Shown: positions 1 to 54,145 of the stretch, in pieces | Layout of the letters: every line of letters begins with the position of its first letter | Numbering within the stretch: the stretch's first letter is position 1 | The notes under the pieces: model-generated | The model's input: the letters and a program-made list of their open reading frames with translations, nothing else | What the model was told of the DNA's origin: nothing | The model's database searches: none | Made by a program: the position numbers and the translations under genes | Source of the DNA: a virus | Lineage: Duplodnaviria; Caudoviricetes | Direction: 5' to 3' (one strand) | IMG/VR virus record: IMGVR_UViG_3300043754_000035 | Coordinates: 1-54,145 of that record | Length of the DNA: 54,145 bases

Positions 1-127
1 CGGCGGCACCACCATCGGAGTCACCCGGCACGCCGCCGCCACCCTCACCCAGTACGGCGGCATGGTCACCGCACTCCTCGTCATCGCCGTCATCATCCTC
101 CGCAAGATCCTCGACAAGCGCGCCAAG
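1..127. repeat. Terminal overlap identical to 54019-54145 (circular assembly overlap)
   Basis: Exact 127-bp identity with the window end; falls inside one continuous ORF. Confidence 0.95.
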
Positions 128-256
128 AACCAGATGGCCTCCGGCGTCTGGTGCGGCTGCACCCTCGGCCTCTCCGCAGGAGCCGCCGGCCTCACCGCCG
201 CCGTCCTCATCCCCGCCGCCAACCAGCTCGGCGTGATCCTCGGCGGCCAAGCATGA
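1..256 (+). CDS. 3' part of multi-pass membrane protein starting at 53726 (Spd-like)
   Basis: Frame continues across the junction; hydrophobic segments; TGA overlaps ATG 253. Confidence 0.8.
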   Translation, partial: GGTTIGVTRHAAATLTQYGGMVTALLVIAVIILRKILDKRAKNQMASGVWCGCTLGLSAGAAGLTAAVLIPAANQLGVILGGQA

Positions 257-810
257 CCGCCCGCGCCGCCAACCAGCTCTACAACGGCTCCCAGATCGTC
301 GCCGCACGGGTCGGCCGCGCCTTCGTCCCCGAAGGCCGGCCCGTCGCCGCCGTAGTCCGCGTCGGCATCGCCGCGTGGCTCTCGCCGTACGTCCTCAACC
401 TCGCCCACCAGGCACCACTGTGGCTCGTCGGCGGCACCTGCGCCTGGTGCATCGCCGCCTGGCGGGCGGCCAGCCGACCGGTCACCGCGCCGACCGACGC
501 CAGCCCGCGAGCCGAACACCCTCAGGAGTTCGACCCGGACGACGTCCGGTCAGAGTTCATGAGGCTCCTCGGCTACAAGCTGGCCGACCGGAAGGGCGTC
601 CACCTCGCCGACATCGCCGAGGAACTCCACGCCCAAGGCATGACCGAGTGGGACGCCCCTGCCCTCCGCCGCCAGTACGAGGCGTACGGCATCCCCGTCC
701 GCCCCCAGCTCTACATCGACGGCCGCAACCGCGCCGGCATCCACCGCGACGACCTCCAGCCGCTGCCCCTCCCCCAGGAGAGGGCCGAGGCCCTCGCCGA
801 ACCGGCCTAG
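253..810 (+). CDS. Membrane protein with C-terminal wHTH-like domain resembling the TraB DNA-binding tail, no ATPase
   Basis: ATGA overlap; two N-terminal hydrophobic segments, Pro-rich linker, C-terminal ...ALRRQYEAYGIPVRPQLYIDGRNRAGIHRDDL. Confidence 0.65.
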   Translation: MTARAANQLYNGSQIVAARVGRAFVPEGRPVAAVVRVGIAAWLSPYVLNLAHQAPLWLVGGTCAWCIAAWRAASRPVTAPTDASPRAEHPQEFDPDDVRSEFMRLLGYKLADRKGVHLADIAEELHAQGMTEWDAPALRRQYEAYGIPVRPQLYIDGRNRAGIHRDDLQPLPLPQERAEALAEPA

Positions 811-877
811 CGCCCTATGAGCTGCGAAAACACTCGCCGCCTAGTAGCCCTAGCCGAGCCCTAGACACCCCGACTAC
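805..877. repeat. Cluster of GCC(C)TAG direct repeats (clt-like candidate)
   Basis: GCCTAG 805 and 839, GCCCTAT 812, AGCCCTAG 846 and 857; CTAG is otherwise scarce. Confidence 0.6.
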
Positions 878-890
878 CCGGGAGCCCGCC

Positions 891-1019
891 ATGGACAAAG
901 CCGTCGTCGCCCTCATCCTCATGGCGATCTGCGGGGGCTTCGTGGCGGGCTACTGGGGCCTGTGCTGGCTCTACGAAACCGCCATCCACGCCGTCAAGCG
1001 CCTCCGGAGACACCGATGA
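891..1019 (+). CDS. Small membrane protein (42 aa)
   Basis: GGAG RBS; one hydrophobic helix and basic tail. Confidence 0.65.
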   Translation: MDKAVVALILMAICGGFVAGYWGLCWLYETAIHAVKRLRRHR

Positions 1020-1120
1020 TCCACCGCCTGATAACCGCCCTTACCGCCGCCTGGGCCACCTGCCCGCACTGCGGCTGGTGGGTCCAGCCCGGCCACACCT
1101 GCCACCCCGCCAACCGCTAA
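1016..1120 (+). CDS. Small Cys/His peptide MIHRLITALTAAWATCPHCGWWVQPGHTCHPANR
   Basis: ATGA overlap with previous stop; CxxC...HxC. Confidence 0.5.
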   Translation: MIHRLITALTAAWATCPHCGWWVQPGHTCHPANR

Positions 1121-1132
1121 CCGACACGCTTA

Positions 1133-1175
1133 ATGCACCCCCCGCATTGACATCTCTATGTGGGGGGTGCATATT
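1133..1175 (+). promoter_or_regulatory. Housekeeping-sigma promoter overlapped by an inverted-repeat operator
   Basis: TTGACA 1147-1152, 17 bp, CATATT 1170-1175; IR atgcaccccccgca / tgtggggggtgcat (13/14). Confidence 0.65.
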
Positions 1176-2514: not shown

Positions 2515-2927
2515 CCGACGACCTGGTGGCGTTCCTCCGCGCACGCCTCGACGAAGACGAGCAGACGGCGCGGGCCGCTTCGGCGGGGCCCTGGCGCGTC
2601 AACAGCGAGACGTACGCCGAGAAGATCTCGGACGCAACGGGAACCGACATCGTCGCCGGCGGCCGATGGGGCGGCGAGGCCTCGGTGTTCGAGTCGACTG
2701 AGGACGCGCTGCACATCGCCCGCCACGATCCCGCGAGGGTGCTGGCCGACGTCTACGTCAAGCGGTGCATCATCGACCAGTTCACGATGATCGAGCTTCC
2801 GGCCGAGTCCAACGGCGACACCGCCGCTGTCGGCGCGTACGTCAAGATGACAGGCGTACTGAGGCTGCTCGCCCTGCCGTGGCGTGAGCATCCCGACTAC
2901 CGGTCCGAGTGGGCACCGGAGGTCTGA
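2511..2927 (+). CDS. DUF6221-like actinophage protein
   Basis: MTDDLVAFLRARLDEDE...HDPARVLADV...LALPWREHPDYRSEW. Confidence 0.8.
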   Translation: MTDDLVAFLRARLDEDEQTARAASAGPWRVNSETYAEKISDATGTDIVAGGRWGGEASVFESTEDALHIARHDPARVLADVYVKRCIIDQFTMIELPAESNGDTAAVGAYVKMTGVLRLLALPWREHPDYRSEWAPEV

Positions 2928-3018
2928 ACGCCAGCGCGCCACAGCATTTCCGAACCACCTGCCACAGCGTCACCACATGCGGAAGGATGGCGCCGCCCAT
3001 CCCCGCAGAGGAGACACC

Positions 3019-3111
3019 GTGGAACCCTGGCACTTCGTCGTCATCGGCCTCGCCATCCTGGCCGCCATCATCTGGGCCATAACCGCCGCCATCCGCTCCA
3101 ACCGGCGCTGA
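3019..3111 (+). CDS. Small membrane peptide (30 aa)
   Basis: GAGGAG RBS, GTG, single TM helix. Confidence 0.55.
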   Translation: MEPWHFVVIGLAILAAIIWAITAAIRSNRR

Positions 3112-3142
3112 CCTGTCCCGGCCGCCTGCCACCCTCCAACGT

Positions 3143-3266
3143 GAGGCACTGACGGGCCGCTGGCCTCCCCCCGAGGCGGCACCGCGGTGACGGTTGTGGA
3201 TGGGTGGTCCACGCGCAGCCCCCGGAACCATCGCTCCGGGGGCTGACCCATGCGGCCCGTAGCCTC
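3143..3266 (+). ncRNA. Candidate multi-branched structured RNA / cis element
   Basis: Outer stem 3152-3160/3252-3260 (plus 3143-47/3262-66) enclosing short hairpins and an 11-bp hairpin 3216-3245. Confidence 0.35.
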
Positions 3267-5058: not shown

Positions 5059-5288
5059 GCGACGAGACATTGCGCATCGAGGCGGGCGAGCTTCGCCGGG
5101 TGGACGTGCGGCCCGGCGACCTGTTCGTGCTGACCGTGGCCCAGAACATGACCGTTGAGCAGGTGGCCGAACTGGGCGCCAGCTGGCGCGACCGGGTCGG
5201 CGAGGTGCCGCTCATCGTGCTGCCGCGCGGCACTGAGCTGTCTGTGTTCCGCCGGGTCGACCCTGACGAGACGGAGGACGCCTCGTGA
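5055..5288 (+). CDS. Hypothetical protein
   Basis: GGAGG RBS, GTGA overlap. Confidence 0.7.
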   Translation: MSDETLRIEAGELRRVDVRPGDLFVLTVAQNMTVEQVAELGASWRDRVGEVPLIVLPRGTELSVFRRVDPDETEDAS

Positions 5289-5443
5289 TCGTCGAGTTCG
5301 AGGTCAGCGGCCCGTTCCAGAAGCGACCGGGCTGGTACCGCAGCAACGTGACCGTCATCCGACTCTGGTGGGCATGGTTCGCAGTCGCTCTGATCAGGGG
5401 CGATTCCAGCACCCGCCGCCGCTACACCTGGGAGCAGCAGTGA
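5285..5443 (+). CDS. Hypothetical protein (52 aa)
   Basis: GGAGG RBS, GTGA overlaps at both ends. Confidence 0.55.
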   Translation: MIVEFEVSGPFQKRPGWYRSNVTVIRLWWAWFAVALIRGDSSTRRRYTWEQQ

Positions 5444-5787
5444 ACGAGCCCATCACCGAACTCGCAGCCCGCGTCCGCGCTGGCCTCCTGGCCGACGAGC
5501 AGACGGCGAAGGCCCTACTCGGCGCTGCCCGCATGATCGGCAAGACGCCGAACTTCTTCGGTGCTGGCGGACCCGCGGCGGAAGCGCTCTGGCAGCGCTT
5601 CACCGAAGGCCGCGTGCTGGCAGACGTGGCAGCGAAGCGGGCCCTGCTCGACGAGGCACTCGACTGGGAACACGGCCACGCCTTCAACGGCGAGGGCTGC
5701 CCCGTCGACCCCTGCCTCTGCGGCCGGGACGAGCGGGTTCGCGCCGTCCTCACCCTGCTCGCACAGCCCTACCGGGACGTGTCATGA
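5440..5787 (+). CDS. Second DUF6221-like protein
   Basis: LAARVRAGLLADE...RVLADVAAKRALL...LLAQPY. Confidence 0.7.
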   Translation: MNEPITELAARVRAGLLADEQTAKALLGAARMIGKTPNFFGAGGPAAEALWQRFTEGRVLADVAAKRALLDEALDWEHGHAFNGEGCPVDPCLCGRDERVRAVLTLLAQPYRDVS

Positions 5788-6508: not shown

Positions 6509-7894
6509 GTGAGTAACACCGTCCGCAGCTACCAGCCGCGCGGCGCAGCACTCGAAGCGTTCCACACCCGCGCGGCCGAGGTGCTGCTGAGCGGCCCGGC
6601 CGGTACGGGCAAGTCGAGGGCGTGCCTGGAGAAGCTGCACATGATGGCGCTCGTCAACCCGGGCATGCGCGGGCTGATCGTGCGGAAGACGAGGGAGTCG
6701 TTGGGCTCGACGGCGCTGGTGACGTGGCGCGAGCACGTGATCAAGGAGGCGCTGGAGAAGGGCCTCGTGTACTTCTACGGCGGCAGCGCGGAGGAGCCGC
6801 CGCAGTACCGGTACGTGAACAACAAGTCGGCGATCATCATTGGCGGGATGGACAAACCCACCAAGATCATGTCTTCCGAGTACGACGTCGTCTACGCCCA
6901 GGAAGCCACCGAACTCACCGTCACCGACTGGGAGAACATCACGACCCGACTCCGCAACGGAAAAGTCTCGTTCCAGCAGCTGATCGCCGACTGCAACCCC
7001 GACACCCCCACCCACTGGCTCAAGCAGCGATGCGACCGCGGCGACACCCTCATGATCCACTGCCGCCACGAGGACAACCCCACCCTCTTCACCAACGACG
7101 GCATCCTCACCGCCCGCGGGCGCGCCTACATCGCCAAGCTTGAACGCCTCACCGGCGTCCGCTTCCAGCGACTCCGCAAAGGCCTGTGGGTCGCAGCCGA
7201 AGGCCTCATCTACGAGGACTTCGACCCCACGGTCCACCTCGTCAACCCGTTCCCCATCCCCGCGTCGTGGTCCAGGTGGTGGGTGGTTGATTTCGGGTTC
7301 ACCAACCCGTTCGTCCTGCAGTGCTGGGCCGAAGACCCCGACGGCCGCCTCTGGCTGTACCGCGAGATCTACCGCACCAAGCGCCTCGTCGAAGACCATG
7401 CCAAGCACATCCTCCGCTTGGTCCGCCGATGCGCAGCGTGCTGCGAGTCCAAGGCCAAGGACCACGACTGCCACGACTGCAAGGCCTGCCGCCTCGAATG
7501 GACCGAGCCCCGGCCGCGCGCGGTCATCTGCGACCACGACGCCGAGGACCGCGCCACCTTGGAGCGCCACCTCGGCATGGGCACCAGCCCGGCGAAGAAG
7601 ACCGTCAAGGACGGCATCCAAGCCGTCCAATCCCGGCTCCGCCCCGCAGGCGACGGCAAGCCGCGCCTGTTCATCCTCCGCGACGCGCTTGTCGAACGTG
7701 ACCCCGAGCTCGAGGACGCCAAGAAGCCCTGCTCCACCGCTGAGGAGATCGTCGGCTACATCTGGGACGCCCAGCCCGGCAAGCCCCCGAAGGAGGCGCC
7801 GGTGAAGGAGAACGACCACGGCATGGACGACATGCGCTACATCGTCGCCGAGCTCGACCTCGGCGGCCGACCACGGGTGCGCACGCTGGGCTGA
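6509..7894 (+). CDS. terL: Terminase large subunit
   Basis: Walker A GPAGTGKS, Walker B-like YDVVYAQE, NP motif, nuclease VDFGFTNP and DHGMDDMRY; precedes portal. Confidence 0.93.
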   Translation: MSNTVRSYQPRGAALEAFHTRAAEVLLSGPAGTGKSRACLEKLHMMALVNPGMRGLIVRKTRESLGSTALVTWREHVIKEALEKGLVYFYGGSAEEPPQYRYVNNKSAIIIGGMDKPTKIMSSEYDVVYAQEATELTVTDWENITTRLRNGKVSFQQLIADCNPDTPTHWLKQRCDRGDTLMIHCRHEDNPTLFTNDGILTARGRAYIAKLERLTGVRFQRLRKGLWVAAEGLIYEDFDPTVHLVNPFPIPASWSRWWVVDFGFTNPFVLQCWAEDPDGRLWLYREIYRTKRLVEDHAKHILRLVRRCAACCESKAKDHDCHDCKACRLEWTEPRPRAVICDHDAEDRATLERHLGMGTSPAKKTVKDGIQAVQSRLRPAGDGKPRLFILRDALVERDPELEDAKKPCSTAEEIVGYIWDAQPGKPPKEAPVKENDHGMDDMRYIVAELDLGGRPRVRTLG

Positions 7895-7925
7895 CCGGTC
7901 GGGGCCGATTCCTACCGTCAACGCC

Positions 7926-8165
7926 ATGACGGCAGTGATCGGCGAGGTCCCCGCAGCTCGACGCCCGCGCATCCCGGGCGCCGTCGTGCTGCTCGCCCGC
8001 CGCGCCGCCGACCACGCCAAGGCCACCGCCGCGCGCCTCTCCGGCAGCCTGCTCACCGCCGCCGGCCTCGGCTGCATCGACGTTGGCGCTTTCGAGGCCC
8101 ACCCAATCGCCGGATGGGTCGTCACGGGCATCTCGCTGATGGCCCTGGAATGGACGCTTGAGTGA
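7926..8165 (+). CDS. Small membrane protein before portal
   Basis: Two hydrophobic segments; GTGA overlap with portal. Confidence 0.7.
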   Translation: MTAVIGEVPAARRPRIPGAVVLLARRAADHAKATAARLSGSLLTAAGLGCIDVGAFEAHPIAGWVVTGISLMALEWTLE

Positions 8166-9810: not shown

Positions 9811-11111
9811 ACCGCGACGCGATGCGGCGCTCGGCGCAGCGCATCACCAACCTCGTCCAGCAGCCCAAGAGCAGCTGGTACCGGGTGCTCCGCAACGACG
9901 CCGGCGGCCCGACCCGAGTCGACATCTATGACGAGATCGGCGGTGGCGGCTGGTTCTCCAGCGGCGTGACCGCTGTCGACTTCGTCAACGAGCTGGCGTC
10001 CATCAACGGCGACATCGAGGTCCACATCAACAGCCCTGGTGGGGACGTCTTCGACGGCTTGGCGATCTACAACTCGCTGGCGCAGCGCCCCGGCAAGGTC
10101 ACCACCGTCGTTGATGGCATCGCCGCGTCGGCGGCGTCGTTCATCGCGATGGCCGGGACGCAGAGGCTGATCTGCCCCGGCGCGATGATGATGATCCACG
10201 ACGCGTCCGGGCTGTGTATGGGCAACGCCGCGGACATGCGTGAGACCGCCGAACTCCTCGACAAGGTCAGCGACAACATCGCGGGCATCTACGCCGACCA
10301 GACCGGCCGCGCGGACGGCTGGCGCGACGCGATGCAGCAGGAGACCTGGTACAACGCCGACGAGGCCGTGGCCGCCGGGCTCGTGCACAAGCTCGCGGAG
10401 CGTCCGGCGCAGGACGCGCTCGCCGCAGCGGCCCACTTCGACCTAAGTCTGTACGCGCACGCCCCGCGCCTGCAGAACGCCGACCAGCACAGCCCGTTCA
10501 CCGGCACCCACACCCACGCGCACCCCGCCTTCGGCGACCAGGGCGGCGACGGCAGCCACGAACACGAGCACAGCCACGACGGCGACGCCGAACACCACCA
10601 CACCCACGCCACGGAGAACCGGGCACCAGGGCGGGTGTTGGGCGTCGAGTCGATGCCGCTGACCAACGAGGCACTCCCGGTCCACCACACCGCCACGGTG
10701 GACGAGCCGTGGGACGGCCCAGCCGCCGTCGCCGCGATGCCCAACGACGCCACCGTGCTGCGCTACTGCCACGCGTGGGAGGACTCGGCAGCCGACGACG
10801 GCACCGCCGATGACCCTGACGGCGACGCCGACGACAAGAAGGCGTCGTTCAAGTTCCCCCACCACGAGACCAAGGGTGGTCCAGCGAACCTTGCGGCCTG
10901 CCGCAACGGGTTGGCCCGGCTTGAGGGTTCGAGCATCCCCGAGGCCGACAAGGCGGGCGTGCGGAAGCACCTGCAGGCGCACCTCGACGACGCCCACGAG
11001 GGCGACGACGACGGCGGCACCGACAACCATGCCGGGATCCCCGGCTGGTTCCACGACCACAGCGCGCCGGCCCCGGCGTGGCTGCACAACCACGCCGAGG
11101 AGGCGCAGTGA
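9807..11111 (+). CDS. ClpP-like (S14) prohead maturation protease with His-rich linker and extra C-terminal domain
   Basis: INSPGGDVFDGLAIYN, DGIAASAASFIAMAG, MMIHDA, ETWYNADEAV. Confidence 0.9.
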   Translation: MNRDAMRRSAQRITNLVQQPKSSWYRVLRNDAGGPTRVDIYDEIGGGGWFSSGVTAVDFVNELASINGDIEVHINSPGGDVFDGLAIYNSLAQRPGKVTTVVDGIAASAASFIAMAGTQRLICPGAMMMIHDASGLCMGNAADMRETAELLDKVSDNIAGIYADQTGRADGWRDAMQQETWYNADEAVAAGLVHKLAERPAQDALAAAAHFDLSLYAHAPRLQNADQHSPFTGTHTHAHPAFGDQGGDGSHEHEHSHDGDAEHHHTHATENRAPGRVLGVESMPLTNEALPVHHTATVDEPWDGPAAVAAMPNDATVLRYCHAWEDSAADDGTADDPDGDADDKKASFKFPHHETKGGPANLAACRNGLARLEGSSIPEADKAGVRKHLQAHLDDAHEGDDDGGTDNHAGIPGWFHDHSAPAPAWLHNHAEEAQ

Positions 11112-37331: not shown

Positions 37332-37688
37332 ATGCCGTGGATCACGAAGAAGGCGCTCGCGGAGCTGTCCGCATCGATGAAACGGCTACGTCATGACGTG
37401 AAGGCGGCCAACACCGACAACGCGGACCTCGCCGCCCGGGCCACGGCCGAGCAGCGTCGCGCTGACACAGCCGAGGCCGCGCTCGTCACCACTCGCGAGG
37501 CCGTGACCGCCGGGCATCGGGAGCTCCTGAGGCGACTCGACGACCTCACCCGCGAGAACGGCCGCCTCACCCGCGACCGCGATGGCCTGCGGCAGCAGCT
37601 CGACCACGCGCTCGGCTACGGCGCGACGGAGCTCGCGGCGATCGAGGCCGGCAAGACGAAGCCGCGCGAGACCGCGGCAGCGCAGTGA
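37332..37688 (+). CDS. Coiled-coil hypothetical protein
   Basis: Heptad-like composition. Confidence 0.7.
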   Translation: MPWITKKALAELSASMKRLRHDVKAANTDNADLAARATAEQRRADTAEAALVTTREAVTAGHRELLRRLDDLTRENGRLTRDRDGLRQQLDHALGYGATELAAIEAGKTKPRETAAAQ

Positions 37689-37746
37689 CCACCCACCACC
37701 TGGCCGGGGCCGACCGTGCCCCGGCCGCCACACCGGAGACCACCCG

Positions 37747-39015
37747 ATGAGCACCTTCACCTTCGCCCCGGCGACCCGCGAACAGGCCAAGGCCCGCATC
37801 GCGCTGGCCGGTCCGTCCGGGGCTGGCAAGACCTACACCGCGCTGGCCATGGCGACGGCCATGGTCGACCGCGTCGCCCTCATTGACACCGAGCGCGGAT
37901 CGGCGTCGAAGTACGCGGCAGGAAAGTCCGGCCACGGCTTCGCGTTCGACACGCTCCAGATGCACAAGTTCGACCCTCGGGACCTGGTCAGCGCACTCGC
38001 CGCGGCGGGTGCGGCCGGGTACGGCGCCGTCATCGTCGACTCCTTGTCGCACTTCTGGATGGGGACCGGCGGCATGCTCGAACTGGTCGACGCCATCGGC
38101 AAGCGGTCCGGTGGCGGAGGCAACTGGGGCGGCTGGAAGGACGCGAGGCCGTTCGAGCGGGCGATGATCGAGGCTCTGCTCGCCTACCCCGGGCACGTCA
38201 TCGTCACGATGCGCACGAAGTCCGAGTGGGTCATCGAGGAGGATGCGCGCGGAAAGAAGCAGCCGAAGAAGATCGGCACCAAGGCCGAGCAGCGCGAGGG
38301 CATCGAGTACGAGTTCGACATCGTGGGTGACCTCGACCTCGAGAACACCCTGGTCGTGTCGAAGTCCCGGTGCCCGGAGCTGTCCGGCGCGGTGGTCAAT
38401 CGCCCTGGCGTAGACATGGCGGCCACGGTCCTCGCGTGGCTGCAGGACGGCACTGAGGTTCCGGAGCTCGCCGACCTGGTGGACGAGGCCATCGCGGATG
38501 AGCTGACTTACCAGGGCGCCCTGGCGCTGCACGCGAAGGCGGAGCGGCACCGCATGCTCGGCGGCGCGATCCTGCACCCCGTCACCGCAGCGCCGACAAC
38601 GCTCGGGGAGTTCATCATCGAGCGCGGCCGTTCCCTGCGCGCCGCCCAGGCCCGACCGTCCGCTCCGACCCCGCGCCAGCAGCCGACCGACCACGAGGTG
38701 GCTCTGGCTGCTGCCTCCGGTTACCACGCGGTCGAGAAGGACGCGGCTCGGGTAACGGATGAGCGGATCGCTGCCGAACGGCAGGCCCTGGTGCATCCGC
38801 TCCGCTCGGTGCCCTCGGGTCACGCGTCGACCGCTGACACCGCGCCCGACGAGAGCCTGCGCACTGCGCTGGACGAACTCCGCGCCGTCGCCGTCGCGAA
38901 GGGCTTCGCCGCCACCCTCGACGTCGACTTCCAGTCCTCGTACGGCGTCAAGCCCACCGAGGCCAGCCTCGACCAGCTCCGCGAAGCCACCGAGATGATC
39001 CGCGCCGCCGCCTGA
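37747..39015 (+). CDS. Sak4-like AAA ATPase (recombination)
   Basis: GPSGAGKT, IDTERGSA, IVDSLSH.W, TMR.K.E, QREG.EYEFD, KSR. Confidence 0.85.
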   Translation: MSTFTFAPATREQAKARIALAGPSGAGKTYTALAMATAMVDRVALIDTERGSASKYAAGKSGHGFAFDTLQMHKFDPRDLVSALAAAGAAGYGAVIVDSLSHFWMGTGGMLELVDAIGKRSGGGGNWGGWKDARPFERAMIEALLAYPGHVIVTMRTKSEWVIEEDARGKKQPKKIGTKAEQREGIEYEFDIVGDLDLENTLVVSKSRCPELSGAVVNRPGVDMAATVLAWLQDGTEVPELADLVDEAIADELTYQGALALHAKAERHRMLGGAILHPVTAAPTTLGEFIIERGRSLRAAQARPSAPTPRQQPTDHEVALAAASGYHAVEKDAARVTDERIAAERQALVHPLRSVPSGHASTADTAPDESLRTALDELRAVAVAKGFAATLDVDFQSSYGVKPTEASLDQLREATEMIRAAA

Positions 39016-42988: not shown

Positions 42989-43909
42989 ATGGCCGAGAAG
43001 GACCGGCGCACTTACGTCCGTGTCCACGACGGGCTGACAGACCACCCGAAGATCATCGAGGTGGGCGGGGAGGCCGCGTGGCTATACATCAGCGCGCTCT
43101 GCTACTCGTCTCGTCAGCTGACCGACGGCCTTGTTCCGAAGCGACTGATCCGCCGGCTAACCGACCTAAGCAACCCTGAAGCACTTGCTTCGGCACTGCT
43201 TCGCGTTGGCTTGCTTCACGACGGCGAACACGACTGCCCGCGATGCCCAGCCGGAGGGTCCGATGTCTACGTCGTGCACGACTATCTCGAGCACCAGCGG
43301 TCCGCTTCCGAGGTTGCCGCACTGCGCGAGAAGCGCTCCGCCGCAGGCCAGAGGGGTGGCAAGCGCTCTGGCGAGTCCCGTCGGGCCGCCTCGAAGAACG
43401 AAGCAAACGACGAAGCACTTGCTTCGGATTTGCTGAAGCAAACGCGAACCAAAACCGAAGCAGAGACAGAGACAGAGACAGAGAGAGAAGAAGTACTACG
43501 TACTTCTTCAACCGCGCGCCGCAAGGCCAGCCACGACGCTCCTCCTCGGGCCGACGTCGAACGCATCTGCCGCGCCCTCGCCGACGCCGTGGAAGCCAAC
43601 GGCTCCAAACGCCCTGCCATCACCGACCGCTGGCGCACATCCGCCCGGCTCCTCCTCGACAAGGACGGTCGCACCGTCGAGCAGGTACTCGGAGCCATCG
43701 AGTGGTCTCAGTCCTCCGACTTCTGGCGCGGAGTTGTCCTGTCGATGCCGAAACTCCGCGACAAGTACGACCAGATGCGCCTCCAAGCACAACGCGGCCA
43801 CGCCCTCGCCGCCACCGGCACCAGCGGCCCCCACTCGTCCACCACCGACCAGCGCGTCCAGGCCGCTCTCGACCTCGCCGCCCGATACGCCCGAGAGGAG
43901 AACGCCTGA
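42989..43909 (+). CDS. Replication initiator
   Basis: DHPK, QLTDG.VP, HDYLEHQ.S; C-terminal FW...VLSM.KLR.KYDQ; internal iterons; followed by loader. Confidence 0.8.
   Translation: MAEKDRRTYVRVHDGLTDHPKIIEVGGEAAWLYISALCYSSRQLTDGLVPKRLIRRLTDLSNPEALASALLRVGLLHDGEHDCPRCPAGGSDVYVVHDYLEHQRSASEVAALREKRSAAGQRGGKRSGESRRAASKNEANDEALASDLLKQTRTKTEAETETETEREEVLRTSSTARRKASHDAPPRADVERICRALADAVEANGSKRPAITDRWRTSARLLLDKDGRTVEQVLGAIEWSQSSDFWRGVVLSMPKLRDKYDQMRLQAQRGHALAATGTSGPHSSTTDQRVQAALDLAARYAREENA
43178..43495. repeat. Iteron-like repeats / probable replication origin inside initiator gene
   Basis: GAAGCACTTGCTTCGG at 43178 and 43412, GAAGCAAACG at 43400 and 43435, purine-rich CAGAGA run from 43461. Confidence 0.65.
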
Positions 43910-52291: not shown

Positions 52292-53278
52292 ATGGCTGCC
52301 ACGCGCCATACCCTCAAGCACCACGCCCCACGCATCATCGCCGCAGTCTTCACCGCCGCCAGCGCCGCATGGACCCTCTACAGCGTCTGGGACCTACTCG
52401 GCGTCGGCCCCGTCGCCATCACCGCCGGAACCGGCGCGGAAGGCCTGTGGGTCGGCGGAATGCTTGCCTACCGGGCCCAGCGCACGAAACTCACCTGCAC
52501 CGCGATGCTCGCCGGCCTCGCCGGAACCCTCGCCATCCTCGCCGTCCACGGATTCGGCGCCTACGGGTGGGGCGGCATCGTCGCCGTCGTCCCCCCGCTT
52601 GCCGCCGAGCTCTTCTGGCACGTCGACGCCCAACTCACCGCCGACCCCACCGCGCTCACCACCGAGCAGCAGGACGAGGTCAACGACGTCCTCCGCCAGG
52701 CCCGGCACATCACCGCCCGTGCCGCAGCAGATCAGGCACGCGAGGACGCCGAGCACGCCGCGAAGCTCGCCCGCATCCGCCGCGACGGCGAACTCCGCCA
52801 GGCCGAAGACCTCGCCGACTTCGACGTGGCCGTTAGCCGGATCGACATGCAACGGCAGATCACCCGCCGCGCGCCGCTCATGCTCCCCGCCCCGCCGGCG
52901 CCCGAGGACACCGACGGAGACGGCCCGGACAAGCCAGGCGGACAGCGTCCACCTGTGTCCGCGGACGTCCTGTCCGCTGTCCGCGCCGCCCTTGAGTTCA
53001 TGTCCGACGCCACCCCCGAGGCCATCGCCGAGCAGCTCGATCAGGCAGGCGTGCCAGCACCCACCGGCGGCCTGTCCGGACAGCCGGACACCAGCTCAGC
53101 CCAGGTACTCCACCTTGCGGGCGACCCGGGCAGCGGGAGCATCGCGGACACCGTCCGCCGGGCATACCACGCCCTCGGACGCGACCACGAAGCCGTCCTC
53201 GCCTACGTCCGCCGACACCACGGCCCCAACGTCAAGCCGGACACCGTCGCCAAGACACTCCGACGCGTCGCCGGTTGA
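52292..53278 (+). CDS. SpdB-like membrane protein (about 4 TM helices, coiled coil, C-terminal HTH-like domain)
   Basis: GGAG RBS; hydrophobic N-terminal third, charged helical middle, ..AVLAYVRRHHGPNVKPDTVAKTLRR. Confidence 0.7.
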   Translation: MAATRHTLKHHAPRIIAAVFTAASAAWTLYSVWDLLGVGPVAITAGTGAEGLWVGGMLAYRAQRTKLTCTAMLAGLAGTLAILAVHGFGAYGWGGIVAVVPPLAAELFWHVDAQLTADPTALTTEQQDEVNDVLRQARHITARAAADQAREDAEHAAKLARIRRDGELRQAEDLADFDVAVSRIDMQRQITRRAPLMLPAPPAPEDTDGDGPDKPGGQRPPVSADVLSAVRAALEFMSDATPEAIAEQLDQAGVPAPTGGLSGQPDTSSAQVLHLAGDPGSGSIADTVRRAYHALGRDHEAVLAYVRRHHGPNVKPDTVAKTLRRVAG

Positions 53279-53296
53279 AGGAGACGGACATGTCCG
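52926..53296. repeat. Array of 13 CGGACA/TGTCCG motifs including palindromes TGTCCGGACA and CGGACATGTCCG
   Basis: Copies at 52926, 52939, 52956, 52971, 52978, 53001, 53073, 53077, 53085, 53145, 53238, 53285, 53291. Confidence 0.85.
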
Positions 53297-53436
53297 CGCT
53301 GCTCTGGGCGCTCCCCGCCCTCCTCGCACTCGCCGGCCTCTACCGCGCCAAGCCCAACAGCCGGCACACCGTCCGCCTCGCCGCAGCCATCACCCTCTGG
53401 GCCACCTGCATCTGCCTGATCATCACCTGGAGCTGA
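53290..53436 (+). CDS. Small two-TM membrane protein (48 aa)
   Basis: AAGGAG RBS; two hydrophobic segments. Confidence 0.65.
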   Translation: MSALLWALPALLALAGLYRAKPNSRHTVRLAAAITLWATCICLIITWS

Positions 53437-53438
53437 CC

Positions 53439-53729
53439 ATGCCCCAGATCCACCCCGAACGCCTCCGGCCCGGCTACAACGCCACAGCCGCCGTCGGCAG
53501 CCTCATCGCCGCACCCGCCTGGGCCCACGCGCTCACCGCGTCCACCAGCGCCGGACCGCTCGCCCCACTCGGCCTCACCGCCGCCGCGTTCCTCACGGTC
53601 GGCGTCGCCAACTGGGCCGTGCCGTGCTGGCCCACCCGCGCCGCCCTCTACGTCCCCGCCACCGCCCTGGCCATCAGCCCGGCCGCCGCCCACGCCGTCC
53701 TCACCTTCACCACCGGAGCCCACCCGTGA
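53439..53729 (+). CDS. Membrane protein (96 aa)
   Basis: GGAG RBS; hydrophobic; GTGA overlap with next gene. Confidence 0.7.
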   Translation: MPQIHPERLRPGYNATAAVGSLIAAPAWAHALTASTSAGPLAPLGLTAAAFLTVGVANWAVPCWPTRAALYVPATALAISPAAAHAVLTFTTGAHP

Positions 53730-54145
53730 CCGTCACCATCAGCCTCGGCGGCCTGTTCATCGGCCTCGTCTTGCTCCTCCGCCAGTTCCTCCCCGCCGCA
53801 TGGGCCGCCGCCATGAAGAAGGTCGGCCGACCCGGCGGCGACCACGAGCACCACCACGGCACGGGCAAGTTCAACATCCGCGAGCACCTGCCGTTCGTCC
53901 TCGGCGCCATCCTCGGCATGCTCGCCATCGCCTGCCCCGGCGGCGTCCTCGGCAGCATCGCCGCGAAGATCGTCGGATTCAGCAACGCCGCAGGAGACAA
54001 GGTCCTCGCCGCAGGCTCCGGCGGCACCACCATCGGAGTCACCCGGCACGCCGCCGCCACCCTCACCCAGTACGGCGGCATGGTCACCGCACTCCTCGTC
54101 ATCGCCGTCATCATCCTCCGCAAGATCCTCGACAAGCGCGCCAAG
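53726..54145 (+). CDS. 5' part of multi-pass membrane protein continuing to 256
   Basis: GGAG RBS, GTG; several TM segments, short His-rich loop. Confidence 0.75.
   Translation, partial: MTVTISLGGLFIGLVLLLRQFLPAAWAAAMKKVGRPGGDHEHHHGTGKFNIREHLPFVLGAILGMLAIACPGGVLGSIAAKIVGFSNAAGDKVLAAGSGGTTIGVTRHAAATLTQYGGMVTALLVIAVIILRKILDKRAK
54019..54145. repeat. Terminal overlap identical to 1-127
   Basis: Exact identity. Confidence 0.95.

Follow-up and report, generated by a model that had tools for sequence, protein, structure and literature searches.

We describe a membrane-protein operon of a temperate phage, encoded across the joined ends of IMG/VR virus record IMGVR_UViG_3300043754_000035 (54,145 nt, positions 1 to 54,145; this whole stretch is hereafter the window). 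The first gene of the operon, g1, encodes a remote homologue of SpdB, the plasmid transfer protein of pIJ101, and its 3′ part carries a dense array of the hexamer CGGACA that is selected as DNA. Related loci carry other words in the same place, and by sequence comparison the word follows the C-terminal helical part of the g1 protein rather than its membrane domain or the product of the fifth gene, g5. We assign a probability of roughly one half to the reading that g1 is an SpdB-type membrane tether which would bind the array in its own gene and so tie the phage genome to the membrane.

The CGGACA array in g1

The two features on which the argument turns are the following.

52292..53278, plus strand: g1, SpdB-family membrane protein, 328 amino acids (aa), from open reading frame (ORF) prediction, hhalign and AlphaFold2 (AF2)
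52926..53296, both strands (7 plus, 6 minus): CGGACA array, 13 copies, spanning g1 codons 212–318 and the start of g2

Genome-wide, CGGACA is present at chance level, with 50 copies against 51.6 ± 7.6 expected. Thirteen copies fall within the 371 nt from 52926 to 53296, where 0.34 are expected (Poisson p 3e-16), and any other 371-nt stretch of the window holds at most 2. The sites lie on both strands and in all three codon phases, two of them are outside g1, and some combine into palindromes, among them TGTCCGGACA and CGGACATGTCCG. Inside g1 there are 11 copies, as against 2.2 ± 1.2 after permutation of synonymous codons, and none of 1000 permutations reached 11. The same permutation was applied to 17 array-bearing genes, in each of which the observed count was reached by at most 1 of 1000 permutations, the word having been picked from the same data outside the CGGACA group. 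The g1 array is under selection at the DNA level, beyond what the protein sequence dictates. It has no AT-rich flank.

A second, unrelated cluster occupies 43178–43462, where 9 of the 24 copies of GAAGCA are found, partly as GAAGCA(C/A)TTGCTTC palindromes, in DNA of lower G+C content (0.66). This palindromic array is a better candidate for an origin or operator than the array in g1.

Which protein the array word follows

Loci were compared by nearest neighbours. When the neighbour was chosen by the C-terminal 140 aa of the array gene, across 26 loci, it carried the same word in 15 of 17 cases; when chosen by the N-terminal part, in 11 of 17; and when chosen by g5, in 1 of 19. In L039, for example, g5 is 79% identical to that of L026, and the words of the two loci differ. 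With only 1 of 19 neighbours sharing the word, g5 was rejected as the reader of the CGGACA array. The co-variation of repeats and proteins that an earlier note on this DNA had proposed as a check is therefore found for the C-terminal part of g1 and does not extend to g5.

Close relatives illustrate the switch of word. The N-terminal parts of L039 (CGGACA) and L023 (CGAACA type) are 89–96% identical, while their words and C-terminal parts differ. L033 (CGGATC) sits by its N-terminal part next to CGGACA loci, and L057 (CGCATC) is 74% identical to L053 (CGGACA). A metagenomic g1 homologue of 65% identity, L060, has no CGGACA and 10 copies of CGAACA, nine of them within 191 nt, and g1 of the window has no CGAACA; all copies thus changed together. 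The last predicted helix also varies with the word, reading TVx[KR] in most CGGACA loci, SVAA in all three CGAACA loci (two lineages) and AYxRTVLSR in two CGCATC loci (one prophage and the plasmid pSAM1). The SpdB-like protein of L039 (3518–4861) has an insertion of about 150 aa before the terminal helices and keeps 14 CGGACA sites.

Homology and domains of the g1 protein

An alignment of the g1 family (A2) matched an alignment of the pIJ101 SpdB family (A6) in hhalign at 95.5% (E 1.5e-8, 138 columns), and a wider g1 alignment (A5) did so at 93.4%. The controls scored 0.2% for another membrane protein and 4.3% for VWB gp24, a DUF2637 protein. In BLASTP, g1 aligned with pIJ101 SpdB at 24.5% over 204 aa (E 0.003 in a small database). 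At the level of profiles, g1 is a remote homologue of pIJ101 SpdB. A smaller subfamily alignment (A4), which is discussed below, matched the g1 family at 98.9%.

The AF2 model of g1 has four helices in residues 12–116, a helix of 70 residues, a disordered linker and a three-helix bundle at 284–327 (predicted local distance difference test, pLDDT, 84–91). In profile searches no solved structure matched g1 or g5 at E below 0.1. The close relatives of g1 number 31 including the protein of the window itself, three of them from named Kitasatospora, and a megablast search of the region against cultured phages gave no match. Scans of g1–g5 with Pfam, NCBIfam and PHROGs yielded no named function; SpdB, SpdA and KilB of pIJ101 are likewise unmatched in the same libraries, so that this silence means little. 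Membership of the DUF2637 (PF10935) or SpdB2 type was considered for g1 and rejected, there being no hit at E ≤ 0.1 either in g1 or in six frames, and hhalign against a mixed DUF2637 alignment giving 1.2%. The gene is set in a phage genome and not beside tra, and the Pfam scan of the ORFs of the window had no GntR hit.

Recurrence in phages, prophages and plasmids

Among the cultured phages searched, only VWB and Kromp showed the module. In VWB it consists of gp24 (DUF2637, 1e-35), the g4-like gp25 and the g5-like gp26, and in Kromp of gp82 (DUF2637 with a g1-like C-terminus), gp83, the g4-like gp84 and the g5-like gp85. A scan of viral contigs gave 35 loci with g5 relatives. By single-sequence phmmer, a g4-like gene adjoins the g5-like gene in 17 of these and an SpdB- or DUF2637-like gene lies upstream in 11, a count limited by the fact that several of the loci end short on the upstream side. 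Bacterial genomes contributed 15 loci, in Kitasatospora, Streptomyces and Embleya, with a g4-like gene next to the g5-like gene in 10 and a relative of Kromp gp82 in 6. In the 6–8 kb fetched for each of these 50 loci there was no relative of pIJ101 Tra or of the TraB-like protein of pSAM1, and phmmer with pIJ101 SpdA found nothing.

Plasmids hold relatives of single components. The g1 protein resembles a 302-aa protein of pSAM1, encoded in an operon that is headed by GntR and ends in a TraB-like gene. The g5 winged helix matched 14 Streptomyces plasmid records, and in the one examined it belongs to the last gene of a GntR-headed DUF2637 operon. The g4 protein had a single weak hit in plasmids.

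Hexamer arrays were sought blind in a set of 35 loci, made up of 31 viral loci and one plasmid besides VWB, Kromp and the window. In 19 of these the 3′ part of the SpdB-like gene carries an array with p < 1e-6, which stops 1.4–2.5 kb upstream of where the g5 ORF ends, and in 14 it had p < 1e-8. Among 100 random 12.5-kb sequences of like composition, 3 attained 1e-6 and none attained 1e-8, and the rest of the window contains one other hexamer array. Of the 16 array-less loci, five do not extend far enough upstream to be tested. CGGACA is again the word in Kromp (22 copies), in L006, L008, L010, L021 and L039 (8–14) and in L052, L053 and L056 (7–10). The words of other lineages are of the ACCCGA type (VWB, L015), CAGCCG, GGCTCA, GCGCCA, CGAACA, CGTACC, CGGATC and CGCATC. 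The survey of related phages and prophages thus bears out the expectation that both gene order and repeat arrays, including the second array described below, would be conserved, as seen in VWB, Kromp and the viral and genome loci.

Arrays in the DUF2637- or SpdB-like gene of seven plasmid loci are weak or absent in L042, L043 and pIJ101, and have p of 1e-7 to 2e-8 in L003, L004, L041 and L044. In pIJ101 (L005), the 3′ 450 nt of spdB (2735–3185) hold 4 of the 8 plasmid copies of CCGGGTC and 5 of 15 of ACCCGG, a weak clustering. A different word, AAGGAC, is clustered in a hypothetical gene of about 650 aa in L041 (pFP12; 7596–7971, 15 of 19 copies) and L004 (pSAM1; 9894–10248, 6 of 11), where it may mark another cis site.

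Operon layout and genome setting

The remaining features of the operon and its right boundary are listed below.

53290..53436, plus strand: g2, small protein of 48 aa (from ATG at 53290) or 53 aa (from TTG at 53275), two hydrophobic segments
53439..53729, plus strand: g3, small Ala-rich hydrophobic protein, 96 aa
53726..54145, plus strand: 5′ part of g4, with GTG start at 53726, continuing at window base 128 (phrog_16379, 2e-16)
1..256, plus strand: 3′ part of g4 (phrog_16379, 3e-11)
253..810, plus strand: g5, membrane-anchored protein with a predicted winged helix, 185 aa (AF2 model, VIA structural matches)
806..864, strand not assigned: CCTAG array of 4 copies, of which the first overlaps the stop codon of g5
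891..1019, plus strand: short ORF for a hydrophobic product of 42 aa, coupled to the one that follows
1016..1120, plus strand: small Cys/His-rich ORF, 34 aa, CPxCGWW...GHxCHP, in ATGA overlap with the 891–1019 ORF
1133..1175: inverted repeat (arms of 18 nt) that encloses a sigma-70-like promoter (TTGACA, 17 nt, CATATT), right boundary of the operon

The window is a complete genome of a temperate siphovirus whose hosts are Streptomyces-like bacteria. Bases 1–127 are identical to 54019–54145, and the record is of the direct terminal repeat (DTR) class with completeness judged 100%; g4 is therefore continuous across the end of the window. The exact length of the 127-nt end overlap may reflect assembly overlap instead of a physical repeat. 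Pfam recognizes, among the 82 further ORFs, a terminase, portal, Clp protease, capsid, tape measure, glycoside-hydrolase-like lysin, integrase and Cro/CI-type regulators, and also AAA_24, Bro/ANT, exonuclease, WhiB and a LuxR-type regulator. The module lies between replication-type and structural genes and on the same strand as these, and the repressor and integrase are not adjacent to it.

From 52292 through the end of the window to 810 the membrane-protein genes are translationally coupled, their junctions from g1 to g5 being, in order, gaps of 11 and 2 nt and overlaps by GTGA and ATGA, and a hydropathy scan places hydrophobic segments in all five proteins. The placement and coupling of five membrane genes were correctly given in the earlier note; the count has to be raised, because the ORFs at 891–1019 and 1016–1120 extend the run to seven genes. 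In L006 and L009–L013, visual inspection of the DNA downstream of g5 showed the CPxCGWW...GHxCHP pattern of the last of these as well. The inverted repeat and promoter at 1133–1175 may be a regulated start of the next transcription unit. Further downstream, matches to DUF6221 at 2499–2927 (5e-35) and 5155–5787 (1e-7) may be paralogues, flanking genes for a sigma-70 region 4 and HTH_17 upstream of the terminase.

The g2–g5 proteins and the missing translocase

Relatives of g2 occupy the same position in L006, L007, L010, L012 and L046, and relatives of g3 occur in L006–L009, L012–L014, L016, L045 and L046. The whole g4 protein has 182 aa and about four hydrophobic segments, and it is related to the C-terminus of VWB gp25 and to Kromp gp84. 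At 50% identity the g5 family has 186 representatives, and of the 150 listed the majority are 185–290 aa long; g5 is related to VWB gp26, Kromp gp85 and a 288-aa plasmid protein. In the AF2 model of g5 a helical N-terminal part precedes a helix-strand-helix-helix-strand-strand domain at residues 95–168 (pLDDT 82–90), for which the best structural matches are winged-helix domains (VIA Z 5.3–7.1, Foldseek E ≥ 0.1). On this model g5 is a membrane-anchored protein with a generic winged helix. Both g1 and g5 had been credited with DNA-binding-like C-termini. For g5 a winged helix is indeed modelled, at weak structural scores, and for g1 the model gives the three-helix bundle, with a family match that stays below threshold (see below).

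No FtsK/TraB ATPase or relaxase had been recognised in this genome, and that observation stands: a six-frame search of the record with PF01580 and NF041214 gave no matches, and a Pfam scan of 93 ORFs found no FtsK/TraB and no relaxase family. The suggestion that the phage keeps a motor-less version of the TraB system fares differently. The g5 alignment matched pIJ101 Tra in hhalign at 0.07%, so that of the expected Spd and TraB relationships the former was obtained, for g1, and the latter was not, and the reading of g5 as a motor-less TraB has no support from sequence. A structural lead from g5 to an FtsK-family cluster was dropped, its template modelling (TM) score of 0.44 being below the bar, and an ATPase domain is absent from the ten g5 relatives examined, which are mostly longer ones. 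One relative of g5, P0167 (373 aa), combines an N-terminal winged helix of the g5 type with two further domains, MUG113/T5orf172 and FtsK gamma (3.6e-19), an architecture in which the g5 domain co-occurs with a domain known to read DNA words.

The second array behind g5

Repeat arrays had been claimed for the 3′ ends of both g1 and g5. The first claim is borne out by the 13 copies of CGGACA in 371 nt. For the second, the word given (GCCCTAG) was too long, since it has only 2 exact copies in the window; the core is CCTAG, which the window otherwise avoids (8 copies, 38 ± 7 expected) and of which 4 of the 8 copies lie within the 59 nt from 806 to 864. The DNA around the g5 stop codon holds 4–7 copies of a CTACC-type word in most loci (among them Kromp, L007, L010–L013, L015, L016, L018, L021, L024 and L029), the word in VWB being TCTCC and that in the window CCTAG. 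The second array is absent from two g5 clades, one formed by L026, L034 and L039 and the other by L035 and L036. This distribution may point to g5 as the reader of the second array, and it would be just as compatible with a shared region regulating the downstream genes.

Proposed mechanism and alternatives

We propose that the operon could be a phage-borne form of the membrane apparatus with which Streptomyces plasmids spread (Spd), lacking a motor of its own. The C-terminal helical domain of g1 would read the CGGACA array inside the DNA that encodes this very domain, and g1 oligomers assembled on the array would fasten the double-stranded phage DNA to the membrane together with g2–g4 and g5, the five proteins presumably forming one complex. 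The g5 protein may read the second array behind its own gene. Unpackaged phage DNA in a compartmented mycelium could thereby be held at the membrane or the cross-walls and passed or partitioned between compartments. It is to the binding of the array by g1 and the tethering of the genome that our estimate of about one half applies; the biological role, spread or partition of unpackaged DNA in the mycelium, is a more doubtful proposition, which we put forward tentatively.

Several observations weigh against this proposal. Since the C-terminal part of g1 is encoded by the very DNA that holds the array, the two are inherited together whatever the reader is, and their covariation is confounded. L039 combines a CGGACA array with a divergent last helix, and the array of L060 shows a weak excess, its observed count having been reached by 6 of 1000 permutations. 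The alignment of g1 with SpdB is limited to the membrane domain, and the subfamily alignment A4 did not match SpdB (2.9%). PF27080 and PF27079 are found, in precomputed annotation, on all 120 SpdB relatives listed and on none of 30 g1 relatives. At its C-terminus g1 has a match to HTH_32 at E 0.002, below the family cut-off, and no significant match to a DNA-binding family, and fold searches with the whole g1 model returned uninformative generic helix bundles and coiled coils. Eight loci whose upstream DNA is long enough contain g4 and g5 and neither an SpdB-like gene nor an array, which means that the module can exist without its SpdB-like part. Finally, TraB is reportedly required for plasmid spreading in addition to the Spd proteins (PMC4447253), and the phage is without TraB.

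This last point is among the arguments for a quite unlikely alternative, that the array is a clt-like hand-hold for a translocase acting in trans, either a host protein of the FtsK or SffA type or a TraB supplied by a plasmid or integrated element resident in the host, with g1–g5 as a scaffold and g1 no reader. The arrays do resemble clt loci, described as 4–9 copies of plasmid-specific words of 7–9 bp at or in the 3′ end of tra (PMC3583192); the phage has no translocase recognizable by PF01580 or NF041214; and the plasmid relatives of g1 are encoded in operons that include a TraB-like gene. However, the word tracks the C-terminal part and last helix of g1, its switch between close relatives is easier to explain by a reader encoded in cis, and Tra or TraB relatives are lacking within 6–8 kb in all 50 loci.

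We consider it decidedly unlikely that g1 and its array are a centromere-like partition or anchoring system, or an origin with a membrane-bound initiator, serving an extrachromosomal (replicating or pseudolysogenic) phase and segregation into compartments or spores. Plasmid centromeres, and origins located in initiator genes, typically have dense short repeats beside or within the gene for their reader, and the long helix modelled in g1 would permit oligomers. Yet the Pfam hits of the 93 ORFs include no partition NTPase of the ParA, ParM or TubZ type, the AAA_24 protein (37582–39015) not being of a partition family; the phage has an integrase; and as an origin the array at 43178–43462 is preferable to that in g1, which is without an AT-rich flank. 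Very unlikely, in our judgement, is a membrane barrier to incoming DNA, for superinfection exclusion or against plasmids, with the arrays as regulatory sites of its own or the next operon. Such a barrier would suit a set of products that are all membrane proteins by hydropathy, a second array that stands between g5 and the downstream genes near a promoter-like site, and the modelled layout of g5, which is like that of a membrane-tethered transcription factor. The genes lie, however, between replication-type and structural genes and away from the repressor and integrase, 13 sites over 371 nt of coding DNA are unlike an operator, and homology to a spread protein indicates the handling of DNA. 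As for the arrays being functionless by-products of repeated peptides or codon bias, some sites do encode recurring peptides (PDT, LSG/SGQ), and 13 of the 22 Kromp sites have strand and phase in common. This explanation is highly improbable and largely refuted, given its rejection by synonymous permutation in 17 of 17 genes (≤ 1/1000), the distribution of sites over both strands and three phases and beyond the gene, and the difference in word between lineages at the same place.

Relation to known systems

The closest plasmid counterpart of g1 is pIJ101 SpdB itself (RefSeq "plasmid transfer protein SpdB"), which likewise has a four-helix membrane domain followed by the start of a long helix, is of similar length, belongs to an operon of small coupled genes and ends in a short helical tail (...ASWRRVT). 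The C-terminal parts of the two proteins cannot be aligned, the phage setting of g1 includes neither Tra nor a GntR repressor, and pIJ101 spdB has no strong array, its best word reaching 4–5 copies. VWB gp24 holds the position of g1, upstream of the g4-like gp25 and g5-like gp26, and bears an array, but it is a DUF2637 protein unlike g1.

Arrays of short repeats by or in the gene of their reader, organized into a higher-order nucleoprotein complex, are also known from plasmid centromeres read by small DNA-binding adaptors (ParR–parC and TubR–tubC types) and from the phage lambda origin inside gene O. For the g1 array no partner NTPase or replication function was seen, and the putative reader is an integral membrane protein.

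A precedent for an Spd protein that binds repeats within its own gene exists in SpdA2 of pIJ101, whose palindromic sps sites lie inside its own coding region, as is proposed here for g1 (PMC4170104). The sps site, however, is a 12-bp palindrome present in 1–3 copies and conserved across plasmids (PMC4170104), whereas the phage core has 6 bp, 8–22 copies and a lineage-specific sequence. TraB/TraA proteins bind clt repeats at the 3′ end of their own genes, and there too the words are clustered, short and element-specific, with a C-terminal helix-turn-helix domain in the same gene's product as reader (PMC3583192). The phage module differs in having no FtsK-type ATPase, a g5 unrelated to pIJ101 Tra, and 8–22 copies in both orientations.

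The Spd proteins of pSVH1 form a membrane complex with TraB, and Spd proteins were described as diverse and mostly of unknown function (Thoma et al. 2015, PMC4447253). The same authors suggested that putative SpdB2 homologues on actinophages, among them phiC31 and VWB, might help to spread phage DNA; the available portion of their text makes no mention of a multi-gene module or of arrays. Both pSVH1 SpdB2 and the phage module involve a membrane protein of the spread type, with the difference that SpdB2 is reported to bind DNA non-specifically (PMC4447253), whereas the phage array would imply specific binding; the assignment of SpdB2 to DUF2637 is presumed only. The earlier note had called the system undescribed. 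Since actinophage homologues of SpdB2 were already in print, this cannot be maintained for the proteins as such; the pairing of array and reader was not met in the literature searched. Neither the phage module nor arrays in SpdB-like genes nor the word–domain pairing was reported in that literature, and the genome descriptions of phiC31 and VWB, which lie outside its scope, may cover the genes. What appears to be new, on the evidence of sequence comparison, is a word array paired with the C-terminal domain of an SpdB-like phage protein, in a module that recurs across phages and bacterial genomes.

Biological significance

The passage of DNA through the cross-walls of Streptomyces hyphae after conjugation is an unsolved problem, on which a conserved phage module offers a testable handle. 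With its private and rapidly switching word array the module names a candidate cis site and a candidate reader, and it comes with natural variants of the word (CGGACA, CGAACA, CGGATC and CGCATC), and two of the phages that carry it, VWB and Kromp, are cultured and open to genetics. The proposal also bears on the life of temperate phages in mycelial hosts, where an infected compartment does not necessarily pass the infection on to its neighbour. A broader generalization, which we regard as unlikely, is that SpdB-type proteins are sequence-specific membrane receptors reading private arrays located in their own genes, and that temperate actinophages spread or partition naked DNA between the hyphal compartments of a multicellular bacterium, free of virions and without a motor of their own. 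If true, the pairing of SpdB with an array would explain how plasmid spreading selects its DNA.

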